This document shows positions 13,891-63,122 of a stretch of DNA of 64,000 nt, piece after piece. This stretch comes from Squalus acanthias (Eukaryota): NCBI GenBank assembly GCA_030390025.1, contig CM059432.1:1-64000 (forward strand), given 5' to 3'. The translations under genes and the position numbers were made by a program. The notes below the pieces were generated by a model. The model was not told the DNA's origin and searched no databases. It saw nothing but the letters and a program-made list of their open reading frames with translations. Within the stretch, counting starts at the first letter, position 1; the number at the start of each line of letters is the position of its first letter.

Positions 13891-14606
13891 TGCAGAAATA
13901 TGAACTGGTGAATTGTGTAAAATGGTTGCCTTTAGAAAATGGTCGAGGACTGCGAAAACTGCAGCCACAGTGAGATCTGAAATAAACAAAACCTTGAAGC
14001 TGGGGGCCGAGGGCTGCTCAAATAACACAGTATACAGGCCTGCAAGAGAAGACAAGCTCGCAGGATGATCGAGTCTACAACAATAATTAACTCAAGATAA
14101 GGGTGACAATCTAGTCTAACGGTTGAGCAGTCGCAAATCACATAATAAGGGACCTCTGGAATCCCCGAAACGACCAAGGATACCGATTGGCTAAGGATGG
14201 ACTCATCTCAGACAAAATGGCCGAATCTGCACACGGCACATAGGTAGTGAAAATATCGATATAATAGAAGGGAGCCAAGAGCGAGTTTAGCAGCGAGAAC
14301 CTGGGAATCACACTCGAGAAGGGAGGAGCCACAAGTCCGGGACTTGTTGTCGGACACCAGCGCGAAGGCTGATCAACTTTCACACAGGTAATATTGTTTT
14401 AAGCTAGCACACATGGGAAGTGAGCCCTGTGTCATTTCCCTTGTAAGTTATTCAAACAACTTGTTAACCAATAAAGTACTGAATGTATGCAACTTACTGA
14501 GTCCGACCGACATTTGACACTTTGAACTAAGAACCATAATTGATGAACTGTTGTTGAGCTGAATACTTATTACTAGCTCAATAGATACAGTGAATCTGGG
14601 ACAACA
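13891..14606 (+). repeat. 5' LTR
   Basis: TG...CA ends, TATA-like motif at 14260 and AATAAA at 14470-14475. It aligns without gaps to 22797-23512, with about 24 mismatches by hand count. Confidence 0.95.
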
Positions 14607-14609
14607 AAC

Positions 14610-14627
14610 TGGCGACTGCGGCAGGAC
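14610..14627 (+). promoter_or_regulatory. Primer-binding site (TGGCGACTGCGGCAGGAC), tentatively tRNA-Ser type
   Basis: The TGG starts 3 nt after the LTR end. It partially matches the complement of vertebrate tRNA-Ser 3' ends (TGGCG....CGGCAGGA). Confidence 0.65.
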
Positions 14628-14641
14628 TTTTGACTTGAGAA

Positions 14642-15452
14642 GTGGGACTTTTCAAGAAGGACAAATTAAGAGTGTCAAACGGAATGAGTTGGAATCTTAA
14701 AAATAAGACACTACGTTACGGGATAACAATGGCGAGTAATAAAGGGGAGACCTCCCAGAGTTGGGAAGAACAGTATAGTAAATTAATGGTAGGAAATTAT
14801 AAAAACTGGGCAGAACAGAAAAAAGGAGGAGGTACCACAGCAGAACTCTGGGCTGCGGTACGCGAGGTAGCAGAGATAAATAGTACGGACCCTGTGATGG
14901 AATTAGCAAGTTTTAAACAGGCCACTGGGGAACACCCCCGCACCAATGCAGAACGCCTTTGGATAGTTTTCTGCAATGTCTTTGGAACACTGGAGCATGA
15001 CGACTTGGATGATACCCAAAAACCATTGTGACTAAAGTCCATCATCTCGCACGCTTCTGACCAGGGCCAAGAGGCCTGTAGAGTGTTCGACCCAAATGAG
15101 GCCACTCACAATGAAGCTTGGGTCTTAAGACGAATGATTATGGCCTGGCAAAACGACCAAAATAAACCCCCGTCCCAGTAAAAAGGGAAGGTGTATGCGT
15201 TTCAGCAGAATCAATGGAGGAATGGTCCTCCAACATGAAAGGCTGAGGGACCACCTGGGATACACAGGAGGGAACCAAGAGTACAGGGGAATTGGAGTAC
15301 CGAAGGGAGCGTGCTTTAACTGTGGGAAACAGGGACATTGGTCCCGAGAATGTGCAGCCCCGAAAAGAAGGACTAGGACAGGAGTGGTCGGAGGCTTAGG
15401 ACGAATGGCACCCGACCAGGAACAGCCAGGGCCAGAGCAGGGAGACCAATGA
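14642..15452 (+). pseudogene. gag: gag (stops and a frameshift) with CCHC zinc knuckle
   Basis: CFNCGKQGHWSREC (CX2CX4HX4C) in ORF 15195..15452, with a capsid-like helical region in ORF 14642..15031. It lies immediately after the PBS. Confidence 0.8.
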
Positions 15453-18400
15453 CTGGGTCCGACTTCGGACATCGTATGTGGGATAGGATATGACAAACAT
15501 GGACCACCTATAGTGTCAGGTACCGTAGGAGGTTTTATGGGACACAGGTGGATCCAGGACGTGCCTGAGAGACCAGCACCCTCTCTCACATAGCGATTTG
15601 ACAGACGTGACAGTTTTACTGAGCGGTTTTACTGGACACGGGCAAATGGCCACATTTACTAAACCGCTAGACATCCAATTGGGTCATTTAAAATTTAAGC
15701 ATGCCTGTTTATCGGTACCACAAATGCAGGGAGAAGAAGCGATACTCGGGATAGATTTCATGAGGAAATTTAATCTAGCCTATGATCCCGCGAACAGACA
15801 TATTTGGAGATTGCATGAAATATGTAATGATGGTTTGATACCGACCGGTCAATATGATGAACGGGTGTGTTGTATGAAAAATGTTTCCTTTAACCCCATA
15901 TTAATGACAAGTGAACCAGGGTTGCAGAAGGTGCTAAGTCAGAATTTAAATGCCTTGTAGGGGGAGGTGGTTTGTGTCAGCTTCACCTCTGACTTCTGAG
16001 CGGTTCGAATCGCTCCCACTCCCTTGGTTCTAGACCTTGGACTTATTTGGGGGTTGTGACAAAAGTGCAGCAGACAACTGGTTTTGGTGCAAGAACTTTG
16101 ATCTTTATTCAAGAGAGAAAATACAACACAACAATCTTAACACTCTAATAAAGTGGGGAACACTTCGGTACAAACGAGGGAAATAACATTAGAAGAATAC
16201 CTCACCCCTCCCAATCCCGCTTCACGAGCTAAGTTGGGCTCTAGAGAACCAGGGTTAACGCTCACCAAATGAATCCTTGACAGTTGAGCTGGTTTGCGGT
16301 TTTGGGGTTCGCTGGATTGGATTTATCGGGTGAGTACCCACTTTTCTTTGGTTAGAGGTAGGGTTTAGAGTCTTTTTAAGTAAAAAGTTTCGTAAGGCCC
16401 TTGTTGCCGCGAGGTGTCCGATGGTCACTGAGGCGGTCGCTCTGGTCTCTTCTTGCGTGTCGGCCTGCTTCTGGAGCTGTTGGCCTTCTTTGTTGAACTT
16501 CTTTCTGTTGCCCCCTCGCCTTGCTGAACTGCCTTCTTCAGAGCTGTGGAACTGCCTTCTTGCAGAACTGTGGAACTGCCTTCTTGCAGAACTGTGGAAC
16601 TGCCTTCTGCCTGCTTGTTGAACTTGTTTCTGTTGAACTGTGTAACTGTACTGGAGAACTCGAACTTGAACTGTTGAGAACGGGCCTTTAATTATACCCA
16701 TTGAAGCTTCCTTATCTGCACCAAATCAAATCCCAGTCATTGTAAGATTTTGGAGGGCTCGTTAACAGTAACTGGTTTGTAAATGTGTGAAGTGGTTTCA
16801 GAATAGCTCCATCCTGTCGATCTGTTGTTTAATTGTAGTTGAATTGTCCTCATGTTTTGGGTTTCTTGACTGGGCCTAGGATTTCTATAGAGTAGGCCGA
16901 AGTAATCTGTTTTATGCATGTCTTTAATGGGCTCTGTAAATTTGGGTGGAGACTGTTTTTCCTCAGGTATTGTTCGGATGTTAATGTCTGCTAGGGGCTG
17001 ATTTAACTCCAAGCGAGGTCATGCGGTTCCCCAGACAGTTCCCATGAACTCCAATATCCGAACTGTCTTTACAGAGGTTGATCCCACCTTCCTTTACAGC
17101 CTTTTCTCCCTCACAAGTCCAGACATGTCTTTTAAAATACCAAAATCTAGTTTTTTTCACTAAAATGTCCTTCGGTTAAGCTCAATGCATTTCACCACCT
17201 GTAATATTTAGAAAAAGAGTCCAAAGTCTTTTTTCCTTAGGGTTTGTCTTCGAGTTTTGGGGGATCTGTGAATTTTGAGAATCTTACAGCCTTTGCCACT
17301 CACAAACATGAGTGTGGTAGGACCACCGGAGAGGTGTTAATTACAGGACCCGATCCCCCACCCCAGAAACAGTATAAAATCCCAGTAGAAGCTGAAAAGG
17401 ATGTGGATAACATTATCCATAGCCTCCTGGAACAAGGCATACTTAGGCCTATCGCGTCTACCAATAACTCACCCATTTGGCCAGTCCAAAAGCCTGATAA
17501 ATCATGGCGCATGACTATAGACTACCGAGTATTAAATAACGTCACGCCTTCAGCAGCGCCCACGGTCGTCACCGCACCAAAGGCTGCTCTCAATTCTTCC
17601 CCAACCGCAAAATTCTTCACAGTATTGGATATTAGTCATGGATTTTGGTCCATACCGTTGGCCAAGGAATGTCAGTATAAATTTGCATTCACTCATAAAG
17701 GACAACAATACACTTGGACTTGTTTGCCCCAAGGTTTCCATAATAGCCCCTCGATATTCTCGAATATGACAACAAATGGGTTAAAGGGATTTTCTCAACC
17801 CTCAGCCCTTGTTCAGTACGTAGATGATATCCTACTCCAAACAGACACCCTTGAGGAACACGAGATCCTGTTACAAGAACTATTAGTAACTCTGTACAGA
17901 TTAGAGGTTAAAATAAACCCGAAAAAGGCACAGATTGGAAAACCAAAAGTGTAATATTTAGGGATGCAAGTAACCCAGGGGGCACGGGAGGTGACCGAAG
18001 ATAGAAAGAAGTCTGCCGCCACCTTACCCACCCCCACAGACGTCAAATCCCTCAGGTCCTTTTTAGGGATTACAGGGTACTGCCGGGATCACATTGAGGA
18101 CTACTCTGTGATCGCCAAACCCTTGTATAATCTACTAAGAAAGGGGGTGCTATGGGAATGGACCCAAGAACATGCGAACTCGTTCGGTAAATTAAAATCA
18201 GCATTGATCCAAGCCCCTGCACTACGAAACCCAGACATGTCTTCGAGCTTTTATCTGGAAACGGCCTCTAGCGAGGATGGTCTGTCAGCGGTATTACTGC
18301 AGGAACACTCTGGAAAGCTCCAATCTGTTGGTTACGCGTCCAGAGTTCTGACCCCCGTAGAAACAGTGTTCTCACCCTGTGAGAAAAACTTACTCAGTGT

Positions 18401-20483
18401 ATTTTGGGCCGTACATAAATTCTCCCCTACAGTCGGACTTAACTCTTTGATTATTCTCACCCCACATACTCCTATTAAAATGCTCCTGGATGGAAACTTT
18501 AAAGAAGGGGCAGTTAGTTCACAACCAATAGCTAGATGGACGCTACTCCTACCAGGAAGGGATATCCAGATTCGATATGAGCCAAAGCAAACTAGCCTAA
18601 CACAAAACATCTTATACCCCGGGGACCAACATGAGTGTAAAATTTTGTCATCAAGTGCCCTGACTGGTCCCTTTCAGACAAAATTAAGGGAGGGTGATAA
18701 CGATATAAGAATTAAAACTCATGTTTACGTAGATGGTTCATCATCAATACGGGAAGGACAACAGTGTCCAGGATTCGGAGTGGTAACTGCGACCGAGGAT
18801 GGGAAAAGGGTTCTTGAAACAACCCCAATTAAACTAGAAGGATCAAAAGGAGCACAAATAGCTGAACTAAGTGCCATAGCATATGTAGTATTGCAGCCAG
18901 AGTCATTTCCCCCACCGGTGGAAATTCATTCAGACAGCAGTTACACCTGCAACAGCCCAACAGACTTTTTACCCATTTGGCAAGCGAGAGGTTTCACGTC
19001 GGCAGACGGGAAACCATTAACAACGGGCCCACTTCCTAAAGTTATCTTTGACGCGGCCATGGCCAATCAGGGACAATATATAATGAAAAAGGTTAAAGCC
19101 CATGTAAAAACCACACCATTAGGAAATCAATTAGCAGATGAAGCAGCAAAACAAAGAGCCATTGATGGTTACCTATGGGACCCTCTGCAGGGAAAGGAAG
19201 GGACACTAACAGAAACCCTCTCGGCTGTCAAGGTATCCTCCAAGACAGTAATAGATCTAAGGGAGAGCCAAAGCTCTGACCCGGATCTGAACAATATCCA
19301 ATTAGGAAAGCCTTATCCCGAACCGTATAGTCAATATAGAACCGGTTTAACTTTAAATCAAGGAGTGGCGCTAAAGAACGGAAAATATGTGGTACCGGAG
19401 GTGGATAGACCCAAAATAATTTACCAGTTCCATGATGTGGGAGGACACCAGGGGATAGATAGAATTACTGCCAAGATTAGGGATGAATGTTGGTGGCCAG
19501 AAATACAATCAGATGTAGAGAAATACGTCAAGAACTGTTTGATTTGTGCTCAAAACAACCCTGGGAAATACAAGAATCAGGCTTTAATGGGACGCACTCG
19601 ACAGGGCAAGGGCCCCTGGGCCCAACTTCAGATAGATTATATAGGGCCACTGCCCACCTGCCCAGGAGGAAAGAAGTACATATTGGTAATAGTAGATGTA
19701 TTTTCTAAATGGATTGAGGCCTTCCCAACCAATAACAATTCAGCTGCCACCACCGCCAAAATCCTAATGGAAGAAGTGTTCTCCCGATGGGGATTACCCG
19801 AAAGCATCGACTCAGATCAAGGGATCCATTTTACTGGGCAGGTCATGAGATCGGTCATGCAGTTGGCTGGGGTAAAACAGGATTTTCACATTTCATACCA
19901 TCCAGAGTCCAGTGGGATGGTAGAAAGAATGAACAGGACCCTAAAAACTATGATGAGGAAATTGGTCCAACAAAATCATACCTCCTGGCATAGGGTGCTC
20001 CCTTCTGCATTAATGGCCATCCGGAACACGGTGGTAGCATCCACCGGCTACTCACCACATGAGCTAATGACAGGAAGGATTCTGAAAGGTATCGAGGCAT
20101 TTATGGGGATGGACCTAAGTGAAATCCAGAAGACATCCTTGTCATCTGAAAAATACAGGACTGATTTGGTGAAGTATTTGGAAGCGGCAAAAATGACCGC
20201 AGCCATAAAAATGGGAAAAAGGCATCAGAAAAGTAAAGCCTATTTTGACGGGAAAACCCACCCATGGGAAGTCAAGATAGGTGACCAGGTCATGGTTAAG
20301 ATCCAAAGGGAGGGAACATTCCTGAGCCCCAAATATGCAGGACCCTTTAGAGTAATGGAAAAAGCTAGTCCCTCCGTATATAAGATAATGGACGGACAAG
20401 GAAAGTACAAATGGCACCACATCAGTCAGTTAAAAACTTTCGGGAAAGTGGATAGTTTTCACCAGTACAACTGGATGCTTTAG
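15453..20483 (+). pseudogene. pol: pol: protease, RT, RNase H-like tether, RNase H, integrase (interrupted by a solo LTR, one nonsense codon at 17952 and a frameshift near 15530)
   Basis: Protease LWDTGGS (DTG at 15541) and ILGIDF. RT LPQGFHNSP and QYVDD. RNase H YVDGS/AEL/SDS/GNQLAD. Integrase HHCC, QIDY, SDQG, MVER and GPF. Confidence 0.92.
15956..17288 (-). mobile_element. Solo LTR (1333 bp) of an unrelated LTR element inserted in pol
   Basis: TGTA...TACA termini and GCCT TSD at 15952-15955 and 17289-17292. Minus-strand AATAAA lies at 16109-16104. Removing it restores the pol frame. Confidence 0.85.
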
Positions 20484-21050
20484 ATCCCCAGGGATTGGAT
20501 GAAGGAAATGATGGTTCAGATGACGGTAACCAATCAGATAGGTCCGATCAGGACTCAACAGGTCTGGTGGACGGAGTAGGGAACCTGTTCCTAAATGACG
20601 AACGGGACCCAAATGAATCTCCTCCTAACTCACCAATAAGGGAGACAGCGAGTACCGGGTCACCAAATTTCATGGCCGCCACTCACCAACTCCAGGGGTG
20701 GGCACACCTACCTGGAATGGATCGCTCCTCAAAGACCCCTCGTTTACAAAGGGTGACTGATATACAAGAAATAATTCATAAACTGTACATAAGAGCAGCT
20801 AGCATCTTGATCATGTTTGTATGTGTTTAGAAATGAATGCCGGAAATAATTCCAGTCGAAACCTCAGACGACTATCGCAACCGCTATCAAGAATGGAGTG
20901 AGCAGCTGTTCTGGACCCTTTTTCCATCTGGGACTTTTGGTGTTCGGAACATTCTTTATCCTATGGATCATCCATGAAATACGAAAGAATAGGGGACACC
21001 AACAGAACAACGAAGAAGGACAAGAGGAAATAGAGGCGGTTCGACAATGA
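20456..21050 (+). pseudogene. Putative accessory ORF between pol and env (acidic N-terminal part, single TM segment), degraded
   Basis: Open frame 20456-20830 is D/N/S-rich. Open frame 20850-21050 contains FFHLGLLVFGTFFILWII followed by HEIRKNR, and its TGA overlaps the env ATG (ATGA). Confidence 0.5.
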
Positions 21051-22758
21051 CGTGTTATATAATAATAACTTGTGTACTGATGATGTGTAGAATTAAACAG
21101 GGTACTGGGTGAACAGAAGGTGATTCTCGCCTCCGGGGAAAAAGACTATAATAGCGCGAATTGTATCACAGAGTTTAGTCACTGGAAGGCCCCAACCCAC
21201 GGAAACCATGAATGTAGCTGTCGTGGGATGGCTAGGACATGCCACCAGACTAGCTTTGCGGGGAACCTGACTAGGGTGTGTGTGACTTGCAGCCATACTA
21301 ACCAAGGTAAACGATCTATAGTCTGGCAGGCAAAGACCGAGAAGGATGGAATATACACAGTATCGTCAGGAGCCAATCCTCTAAGTAGACCAAATTGTAC
21401 CATCGAGGGGAGAAAGGTATGTTGTCAGATGGATCCACAGGCAAAGAGTTCACACTTATTCGTGGGATGTAGTAGTAATAGGGCGGTGGGAAACCTGACT
21501 TCTAATGCAAGGGTCCCCCAGAGACCTAATTGCTCCTGCGAAAGTCAAGGGAAGATCATAGTTCATCAGCTCCCTTCCACCCCCACCCCAGGACCAACTC
21601 CCACCCCTATGACCACTTCCCCATTCCCACCCACTCTGGCTCCTCCGAGAGAATGCCCCCAAGAAACGTCAGGACCAAAGGGAGGAGCTGTATTCAGGAC
21701 CACTGGCGAGATTGTGTATGATAATGTACAGTATGCACTGGTACCCGTCGTTTTGAATATGTCAGATCTCCAGTTGCCCGCCTGGTGTCCTACTAAACTG
21801 CAAGATATTCACCGAGACTTGATTAAGGGGTTGCTCCAACAGGAAATAGGCAATAATACTGGGGGGAACCGTACCCAGGAAGGAACAAGTGAGAGCAAGA
21901 AGGAATGAAGTTAGCGGAGGTTAAGAATATAGGGATAATACAGGAAGGACTATGGATGAGGTTTGATAATCTGTTACCATATGCTGTCGAACTAGATGGT
22001 ACCCTAGTCGATCCCACCCTAAATCAATGCCAACAAACTGACCAAATGGTAATATGCCCCGATAAGATTTATCCAACTAACGCGACAAGATGTGGGTTCA
22101 ATGGGATCAAAACCCTAAATTGTACGCTGGGAGTGGAATCTACCACTGGAAGAATCGTGAGAACCGGCTATCAGGGAAATGGAACTTACTGTTTTACCAC
22201 AACCGAGGTCAGCTATCACTATGGGAACAGGGAATGTCCCATAGAAACCCCGACCTTCTGTCTGCACCCTTTAATACCGATGAGATTGGGTAATGAAGAA
22301 ATTATCGATATTGAGCGAAGAGAAACAGGTTGAGATTAATGTGGCTGACGGTCTGAAAGGAAACTTGGACAATTACTTTGGAAAATATGACATCAGTATC
22401 CAATTAGAGAAGGAACATTTGATTAGGATCAAGCATCAGCCTTGAACTGGTATATCAGACTTACATACGAGTGGAACAGAACACACAGGAAATTGGCAAG
22501 GACATAAAGAGCATCAAGATAGACACATGGTGGGATGAAATATGGAATCGGGGTACAAATGTCAATATACACCCATGGATTAGAATATTCTCACACATTA
22601 CAGTTATTCTAGTTACTGTAATATTCCTGTGTCTGTGTGTCACCTGGAGAAGTATGATACGATTGGAAAAAGATTGAAGGGGCAACTCGAAAAAGATGGA
22701 GATGGGGCAAGTGATGAAGATGGAAGACCTGGAGGAGGCTACTAACTACAAAAGGTGA
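21047..22758 (+). pseudogene. env: env-like class I fusion glycoprotein, frameshifted and internally deleted
   Basis: Signal-like MTCYIIITCVLMMC, an RGKR motif, a Cys-rich domain and a Pro/Thr hinge. These are followed by RARR at 21892-21903, a Cys-rich block (21905..22333), a heptad region, WWDEIW and TM ITVILVTVIFLCLCV. Several N-x-S/T sequons are present. Confidence 0.8.
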
Positions 22759-22785
22759 TCAATATAATCTATGATTAAAATGATC

Positions 22786-22796
22786 AAAGGGAGGAG
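22786..22796 (+). promoter_or_regulatory. Polypurine tract
   Basis: AAAGGGAGGAG immediately before the 3' LTR. Confidence 0.85.
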
Positions 22797-23512
22797 TCTA
22801 GAAATATGAACTGGTGAATTGTGTAAAATGGTTGCCTTTAGAAAATGGTCGAAGACTGTGAAAACTGCAGCCACAGTGAGATCTCAAATAAACAAATCCT
22901 TGAAGCTGGGGGCCGAGGGCTGCTCAAATAACACAGTTAACAGGCCTGCAAGAGAAGACAAGCTCGCAGGGTGATCGAGTCTACGACAATAATTAACCCA
23001 AGATAAGGGTGACAATCTAGTCTAACGGTTGAGCAGTCGCAAATCACATAATAAGGGACCTCTGGAATTCCCGAAACGACCAAGGATACCGATTGGCTAA
23101 GGATGGACTCATCTCAGACAAAATGGCCGAATCTGCACACGGCACATAGATAGTAAAAATATCGATATAAAAGAAGGGAGCCAAGAGCTAGTTTAGCAGC
23201 GAGAACCTAGGAATCACACTCGAGAAGGGAGGAGCCACAAGTCCGGGACTTGTTGTCGGACACCAGCGCGAAGGCTGATCAACTTTCACACGGGTAATAT
23301 TGTTTTAAGCTAGCACACATGGGAAGTGAGCCCTGTGTCATTTCCCTTGTAAGTTATTCAAACAACTTGTTAACCAATAAAGTACTGAATGTATGCAACT
23401 TACTGAGTCCGACCGACATTTGACACTCTGAACTGAGAACCATAATTGTTGAACTGTTGTTGAGCTGACTACTTATTACTAGCTCAATAGATACAGTGAA
23501 TTCGGGACAACA
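22797..23512 (+). repeat. 3' LTR
   Basis: Copy of 13891-14606 with TATAAAA at 23166. It ends in CA, followed by the GGGG TSD. Confidence 0.95.
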
Positions 23513-62037: not shown

Positions 62038-63122
62038 CGAGAGTCCATAAATTTCTCGATCTCAGCCTTGAATAAACTCAACGATTCAACATCCACAGCC
62101 CTCTGGGGCAGAGAATTCCAGAGATTCACCACCCTCTGAGTGAAGAAATTTCTCCTCATCTCGATCTTAAATGGCCGACCCCTTATCCTGAGACTATGCC
62201 CCCTAGTTCTAGACTCTCCAGCCAGGGGTAAACATCCTCTCAGCATCTACCCTGTCAATCCCCTTCAGAATCTTGTATGTTTCAATGAGAAAACCTCTCA
62301 TTCTTCTAAACTCCAGAGAGTATAGGCCCATACTACACAATCTCTCAGCATAGGACAGCCCTCTCATCCCAGGAATCAATCTAGTGAACCTTCGTTGCAC
62401 CGCCTCCAAGGCTAGTATATCCTTCCTTAGATAAGGAGACCAGAACTGTGCACAGTACACCAGGTGTGGTCTCACCAAGGCCCTGTACAATTATAGTAAG
62501 ACTTCCTTATTCTAATTCTCCAACCCCCTTGCAATAAAGACCAACATGCCATTTGCTTGCTGTACCTGCATGCTAGCTTTCTGTGTTTCCTGTACGAGGA
62601 CACCCAGATCTCTCTGAGCACCAACATTGAACAGTTTCTCACCATTTAAAAAAGATTCTGCTTTTCTATTCGTCCTAACAAAGTGAATAACCTCACATTG
62701 ATTATTAACCCTTAACTCTCCAGGATGTCCAACAGGGATTCTCTACGCCAGTCTCCCCGCCTCCCCCACCCCCCACTTTCGCAGCAGGTGGGCCACAGAA
62801 GCTTGCCATCCATTTCCCCCTCACTTCCGCCTCACTTTCAAAAAGTCTTAATCGCGCCCGTATAAAGCTGGCCTCTGGGTTGCTAGACACTGCTCCGAAG
62901 GTGGAAGAAATCTAAGGGGAAAATCTCTCAGACGCCTCCTTTCTCGGGTGACAGGCTCAAGTCTCATAACTCAGAACCCTGACACCGGGGATTAGCATCG
63001 AGATTCTTCTCTACGGAGTAAGATATCGGACAGGAGGTGAATCCTGAAGTACGGTAGCCTAGTGGTGATGTTACTGGACTAATAATCCAGAGGACATGAG
63101 TTCAAACCCCACCGTGGTTCTT

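Follow-up and report, generated by a model that had tools for sequence, protein, structure and literature searches.

A possible decayed small membrane-protein gene ahead of env in a foamy-like endogenous retrovirus of Squalus acanthias

The single likeliest reading of positions 20837-21050 in a foamy-like provirus of Squalus acanthias is a small accessory gene for a transmembrane (TM) protein, unproven and given by us slightly less than an even chance. The provirus lies in the window that we analysed, which is the whole 64,000-nt stretch at the start of contig CM059432.1. An earlier note, made from the letters of the window alone, had flagged the interval between pol and env, and half of what it flagged is ordinary, namely the tail of Pol and the start of env, while the other half is plausible as a small TM gene but broken. 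More fully, the proposal is of a decayed Vpu-like single-pass gene of ~70 codons, which would have been carried on a spliced env mRNA and have ended on the env start; we lean toward it without giving it quite half of our confidence. As it stands the small gene would be a relic, and its reality we regard as about an even call.

The window holds one provirus, at 13891-23512, decayed and foamy-like (Table 1). Its LTRs, ~716 nt each, show 22 differences over 713 aligned nucleotides, and it was inserted into a LINE of CR1 type, flanked by a duplicated 4-bp target, the LINE resuming beyond the provirus. No second copy of the internal region was found elsewhere in the 64-kb window. Pfam gave the domain order gag zinc knuckle (PF00098, E 3e-7, at 15138-15449), protease, RT, tether, RNase H and integrase (IN); the integrase is NYNRIN-like and goes with a dual RNase H (tether plus RNase H). 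Against solved structures, RT matched foamy PR-RT at E 6e-39 and MLV at E 2e-24, and the best match of IN was PFV IN (E 2e-37). Among 63 Pol matches from 3509 candidates, the nearest named relatives were from Scyliorhinus torazame (51% and 42%) and Heptranchias perlo (41%). By eye, pro and RT are separated by a 1333-bp insertion at 15956-17288, which is bounded by TG...CA, has a 4-bp duplication and resembles a solo LTR or a non-autonomous element. A primer-binding-site-like sequence lies at 14610-14627, 3 nt past the 5' LTR, and a tRNA-Ile(AAT) gene or tRNA-derived repeat head at 63046-63121.

Table 1. Coordinates of the provirus features and of the elements between pol and env, in positions of the window.
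Feature	Position	Strand	Remarks
5' LTR	13891..14606	+	713 nt aligned at 96.9% with 3' LTR; termini and duplication from flanks
pol (tether, RNase H, integrase, to frameshift near 20464)	17955..20464	+	Pfam; foamy-virus proteins are the closest solved RT/IN
Acidic low-complexity Pol C-terminal tail	20465..20767	+	In phase with pol, stop 20765-20767, in 4/4 runs
Splice-acceptor-like site	20812..20830	+	T-rich tract, AG 20829-20830; putative 5' end of env exon
22-codon upstream ORF	20833..20901	+	ATG with purine at -3
Candidate 5' part of small gene	20837..20916	+	Met (weak context) and ~26 acidic/aromatic codons
Predicted TM helix	20919..20972	+	18 codons, T at codon position 2 in 13/18 (P 0.013)
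Basic-then-acidic tail of TM frame	20973..21050	+	Open in window only; closed at 20982-20984 in 4/4 runs
env	21047..22677	+	Several frameshifts, first near 21082-21084; 21893-22330 aligns with L001 env; parts in order: signal peptide, Cys-rich domain, Pro/Thr hinge, F-like core, TM anchor
3' LTR	22797..23512	+	Purine tract ahead

We placed the element in an RT tree with 41 rows, made up of the window, 23 loci out of 27 chosen and 17 proteins out of 39, over 208 columns, with one loki-type row, no named foamy or FLERV row and no AU test. The window joined P0008 (98/90), and the two grouped with P0004, P0006 and P0013 among the retroviruses, across a 100/95 branch from the loki-type element L001; this clade may merit separate description. 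A lokiretrovirus identity was dropped, since the tree excludes L001 and RT and IN are closest to foamy viruses. Judged by its sequence, the element behaves as a foamy-like ERV with an apparently F-type env, which we file neither under the teleost FLERVs, because of the zinc knuckle and the absence of genes behind env, nor under the lokiretroviruses, because of the RT tree. The ~120 nt between env and the 3' LTR held no plus-strand ORF of 60 aa.

To look at other copies, we used a run search that returned 20 runs of 7 organisms with 24-45% of words, and compared four runs of four organisms (X1, X7, X8 and X9) over 20330-21330. The comparison was made on contigs, with no splice joint listed, and X8 is only guessed to be RNA. 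The main contigs lie ~2% from the window and less than 1% from each other. Where a record spans the region, the differences listed for it sum to its total, so that unlisted sites are unchanged. Two records stood apart. In X8 record 10 the contig jumps, by eye, from 21082 to ~21716 via a short shared word, and appears to be an internally deleted or spliced env form without the Cys-rich domain. X9 record 12 belongs to a second, more distant family, with 21 differences in 121 nt (20331-20451) and ~83% likeness in IN; it diverges behind the end of IN and would make a good outgroup.

The acidic frame (20456-20830, 124 codons from stop to stop) is the disordered C-terminal tail of Pol. In all four runs pol is continuous into it across ~20464 and stops at 20765-20767; in the window the tail is out of phase after a frameshift near 20464 and runs on to 20830. 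The acidic frame that had been noted is therefore present but not part of any accessory gene, and the ~560 bp that had been placed between pol and env shrink to a true gap of ~280 nt. After the last IN motif (20412) this tail continues for ~120 residues. Among relatives, whose gene models are unchecked, one shark Pol had a tail of 183 residues and ten others had 7-34, with five unscorable. By eye, the distant X9 contig stays in the pol frame with a similar tail peptide.

The ATG at 21047 is the start of env. In all four runs it opens the frame of the env body, with a signal-like stretch; in the window it opens 21 codons only, and env goes on in another frame. When env pieces were aligned with the PF00523-positive env of L001, one of four aligned (21893-22330; z 4.7, 0/500 shuffles), and Pfam gave no direct PF00523 match for env. 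Two env pieces, folded as single sequences, reached pLDDT of 35 and 40, and Foldseek on the env folds returned nothing under E 0.08; the N-terminal part had no match among longer proteins, and one env piece had no usable Atlas match and no PDB match. At 21084-21680 Env has an N-terminal domain of ~155 residues with 13 Cys, followed by a Pro/Thr hinge (20 of 36 residues). By eye, this Cys-rich domain precedes the part that resembles the start of loki Env, which is without such a domain; it is possibly a receptor-binding domain on an F-type fusogen. Near 21880-21900, also by eye, comparison with L001 suggests that env has lost the cleavage site, the fusion peptide and the first heptad region to an internal deletion.

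Between these two ordinary elements lies the TM frame (20850-21050, 66 codons), in which the helix, the basic residues and the acidic tail are present as first described. It has no ATG in the window and so is no ORF as it stands; its stop at 21048-21050 overlaps the env ATG in an ATGA. We examined the helix by shuffling. Its best 19-residue KD mean of 2.09 was reached by 0/2000 dinucleotide shuffles of 20831-21046 and 4/2000 of 20768-21046, and, with local base composition kept, by 35/2000 shuffles of the T-rich part and 130/3000 block shuffles (P 0.018 and 0.043), so that for a helix chosen after the fact the locally composition-matched P is only 0.02-0.04. Its codon-phase bias sits on an otherwise A-rich strand. 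There are 3 K/R in the 15 residues behind the helix (in the window only) and 1 before it, 5 D/E in the last 15 residues of the frame, and 6 D/E among the first 26 residues of the candidate protein, a charge bias that, on sequence, would point to N out and C in. The chance that an open tail ends exactly on the env ATG is roughly 0.05. Codon-usage and periodicity tests did not separate the frames; a presumed non-coding control was equally periodic, and the codon-usage test, trained on ~1660 codons including 99 off-frame, ranked the true frame best in only 17/32 training-set windows.

The copies keep parts of this frame and none keeps the whole. The ATGA is unchanged in 4/4 runs, and in all four the TM frame stops at 20982-20984, ahead of the basic and acidic tail and 63 nt before the env ATG. 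In the runs the helix includes a Met, at 20940. Of the five copies only X8 has the Met at 20837 in phase with the helix; in the window, X1, X7 and X9 its frame and the TM frame fall out of phase near 20916. By parsimony the X8 phase is a derived state, since four of the five copies are without an in-phase Met 20837. A complete frame from Met through helix and tail to ATGA is found in 0/5 copies, its parts being present in complementary copies. Each of the five substitutions listed for 20919-21047 affects the TM frame, by a changed codon or by a stop, and the frame therefore gives no sign of selection. Of what the earlier note had proposed, the stop/start overlap holds in the window and its four letters in every run, but the frame that should end there does not; the novel accessory gene survives as the likeliest reading and not as an intact ORF. 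The refuting result that the note itself had named, a region not conserved as an ORF among copies, is thus borne out in part.

The signs as to which state is ancestral, that of the window or that of the runs, point both ways. The run stop at 20982-20984 sits on a CpG site. We counted 16 run-shared substitutions, which go 10 to 1 from G/C in the window to A/T in the runs, while among 12 single-run changes the ratio is 5 to 4; had all the shared changes arisen in the window, this pattern would have P 0.006 or less. Neighbouring LINE copies changed from G/C to A/T by 8 to 4, 12 to 6 and 11 to 6, with one older LINE copy going the opposite way (25 to 42), one without change and one without comparison. 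The CpG stop, the 10-to-1 bias and the decay of the flanking LINE together suggest that many shared changes probably arose on the side of the runs. Other changes are derived in the window: both frameshifts that separate window and runs, and site 20425, the sole substitution that could be polarised with a more distant copy, at which the distant X9 contig agrees with the runs. From these three, the runs may show the older state. The distance between window and runs (2%) is smaller than that between the LTRs (3.1%), as expected if all five copies are one inherited locus. If they are, the four runs amount to a single observation, and any break that predates the species split would be common to all.

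Upstream of the TM frame lie signals that could serve env expression. Three pyrimidine-rich AG sites occur in 20431-21060, and the one at 20829-20830 is the only T-rich one without an inner AG; it precedes two ATGs, by 2 and 6 nt. L001 has an acceptor-like site of the same type 1 nt before its env ATG, with no small ORF, and two published loki env entries begin likewise at an acceptor-like site (by eye). In the window the env ATG stands 217 nt downstream of the acceptor-like AG, behind five upstream ATGs.

A scheme can be drawn from this layout. The segment 20831-21046 would be the first part of a spliced env exon, and one spliced mRNA would yield both the small protein and Env, as with HIV-1 vpu. 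Most ribosomes would start at the better ATG, at 20833, read 22 codons and reinitiate at env, and some would leak to the ATG at 20837 and make the small protein, with a short acidic N-terminus outside, one helix, and a basic and then acidic tail inside. Such a protein would likely have been an accessory membrane factor. The ATGA overlap would reflect tight packing; coupling of the calicivirus type is possible and would not be needed. Each copy seen is, on this view, a relic in neutral decay with one or two breaks. The Pol tail, the env start, the helix and the breaks are read from the sequences, while splicing, the complete gene, the route of translation and the function are inferred. Support for a small gene comes from the helix that beats its shuffles, the codon-phase bias, the charge pattern, the acceptor-like AG before two ATGs, the X8 phase, the tail ending on the ATG, and the pol-env accessory ORFs of teleost foamy-like ERVs. 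It is weakened by the broken ORF in all five copies, the stop before the tail in all four runs, and the want of a homologue.

With respect to homologues, the TM frame had none among 1.84 billion representatives, just 2 repeat-driven matches; the X read-through protein search gave no candidate; and Pfam on the small gene gave nothing under E 0.07, including no likeness to Vpu. A locus scan found none with a single IN query and 115 loci with an alignment; none of the 115 matched any of 7 post-pol frames at E 0.05, L001 being the only one read downstream of IN. We consider this homology null to be weak, as short genes of animal genomes are poorly covered by those sets.

The strong rival, which we judge unlikely but far from negligible, is that 20768-21046 served as an env leader that encodes no protein beyond short uORFs, in which T-rich and purine-rich arms, perhaps of an RNA stem-loop, mimic helix and acidic tail and the ATGA is due to chance. 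It accommodates the lack of a whole ORF in any copy, the shared run stop and the lack of a homologue, and 32% of the ATGs in the provirus are followed by A. Moreover, 20900-21060 folds as one long hairpin (20900-21042; z -1.9, 6/200 shuffles), which would account for the T-rich and purine-rich halves without any coding role. However, folding in sliding 150-nt windows over 20200-21469 gave no z below -1.7, and the three run-shared changes at paired hairpin positions all break pairs. A plain leader would also be burdened by the five upstream ATGs, and it leaves aside the codon-phase bias and hydropathy of the helix.

We think it distinctly unlikely that a cartilaginous-fish foamy-like lineage with an F-type Env had a 70-residue single-pass accessory protein, independent of Vpu, whose stop drove Env by coupled termination-reinitiation at the ATGA. 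The earlier note had likened the overlap to such coupling, and we found nothing for it beyond the geometry. UGGGA has a sole copy in 20761-21060, 119 nt upstream of the stop, and the upstream frame is closed in the runs; in TURBS coupling the motif typically lies 40-90 nt upstream (available text of PMC3542737 and PMC10275272). Pneumovirus M2 coupling needs no UGGGA motif, according to the available portion of PMC3542737. The literature that we searched held no case of coupled termination-reinitiation for a retroviral env.

A shorter, tail-anchored peptide of ~48 codons, from Met 20837 to the stop at 20982-20984, would have the tail and the ATGA arise from stop loss in the window; we hold it improbable. 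It is the state of X8, its stop is common to all four runs, and window-side changes are proven at three places. Against this, the phase is seen in a single contig, of depth 14, and at a homopolymer; the stop falls on a CpG, and basic residues follow the helix just past it.

Two further readings extend Env itself, and even taken together we give them little credit. In the first, for which we see a slight chance, Env is lengthened at its N-terminus by 70 residues, starting at Met 20837 and including an Arg-rich patch, in the frame of ATG 21047. Such an extension would resemble the long Env signal peptides of betaretroviruses. This reading shares the frame of the env ATG, the window stop at 20975-20977 is a sense codon in 4/4 runs, and the tail part gives it the best synonymous-codon score, in a weak test; but a stop at 20990-20992 stands in 5/5 copies, X9 has a further one, and the helix in the other frame goes unexplained. 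The second, that the TM frame is a foamy-type Env leader continuous with SU and RQ*R a mutated furin site, as the earlier note had offered in the alternative, draws on the foamy-like Pol and on the TM helix and furin-like site of the foamy Env leader (available text of PMC11468914), and it is largely refuted and very nearly without chance, since in that frame 6 of the 12 codons in 21048-21083 are stops, the env body in 4/4 runs continues the frame of ATG 21047, with a signal-like stretch of its own, and not that of the TM helix, and the charge bias is N-out, C-in.

If the reading as a small gene is true, a basal foamy-like retrovirus had a small membrane accessory gene in the slot of lentiviral vpu, the same slot that holds large non-membrane ORFs in the foamy-like ERVs of teleosts. 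It would speak for repeated invention of a pre-env layout and offer a natural case of env translation from a two-gene mRNA. In the open literature, with subscription journals and Repbase outside it, none of the foamy-like or loki elements of fish or sharks showed a small TM gene ahead of env. Shark foamy-like ERVs have been known mainly by their pol, and the provirus adds a complete layout, in which Gag has a zinc knuckle and an apparently F-type Env has an extra N-terminal domain.

We compared the element with the fish FLERVs (AciFLERV acc3/acc4, DrFV-2 ORF-1, and the shark CmiFLERV/XtrFLERV group), with which it shares a foamy-like RT and IN and, from the available text of PMC5512871 and PMC5210030, a slot for accessory ORFs between pol and env. 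In the same portions of those papers the pol-env ORFs of teleost foamy-like ERVs are 334-465 aa long, are under purifying selection and have no TM motif; in this length and in the missing TM motif (available text of PMC5210030) they differ from the candidate. The Gag of teleost FLERVs and foamy viruses is without a Cys-His box, whereas the provirus has a zinc knuckle, and it differs from FLERVs also in having no ORFs behind env. Within the available text, only pol was detected for ghost-shark FLERVs (PMC5512871), and a catshark spuma ERV had no Gag or Env domain (PMC10699275). A likeness of foamy Env to F is covered in the available text of PMC11468914.

Lokiretroviruses, as the available text of PMC7947760 describes them, are alike in the tether plus RNase H, the NYNRIN-like IN and, apparently, the F-like env (further sources, likewise available in part, are PMC9040795 and PMC12440569). 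They differ in RT, which in the window falls apart from the one loki-type row; in env, which in L001 follows directly behind the acceptor without a small ORF; and in Env, which in the window has the additional N-terminal Cys-rich domain. That screen, in its available portion (25/159 sequence labels covered), found no lokiretrovirus in cartilaginous fish (PMC7947760). L001 itself (L001:5132-6994) is a loki-type element on a metagenome contig, with a PF00523 env, an RxKR site and an acceptor before the env ATG.

The TURBS systems of caliciviruses and of influenza B M1/BM2 have the AUGA stop/start overlap seen in the window, where stop and start fall within the 20 nt that such coupling allows; the spacing of UGGGA and, in all four runs, the closed upstream frame set the element apart from them. 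By criteria in the available text of bioRxiv 10.1101/2025.03.14.642691, the candidate resembles the sORF2/FAST-like fusogens of LTR elements in size class, in its one helix and in having at least 3 K/R within 15 residues behind the helix (in the window only); it has no MGxxxS/T, residue 2 after Met 20837 being Pro, and unlike them it belongs to an element with an env.

HIV-1 vpu offers an anatomical parallel, with differences. The candidate has no sequence likeness to it, has a longer N-terminal part, overlaps env by 4 nt only and is not whole in any of the five copies. HIV-1 employs leaky scanning together with a minimal uORF at the start of vpu, where two ATGs lie a few bases apart, and its small single-pass gene stands before env on a spliced mRNA (available text of PMC6337239), as the candidate would. 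The helix, basic hinge and acidic tail that make up Vpu are all shared by the candidate.
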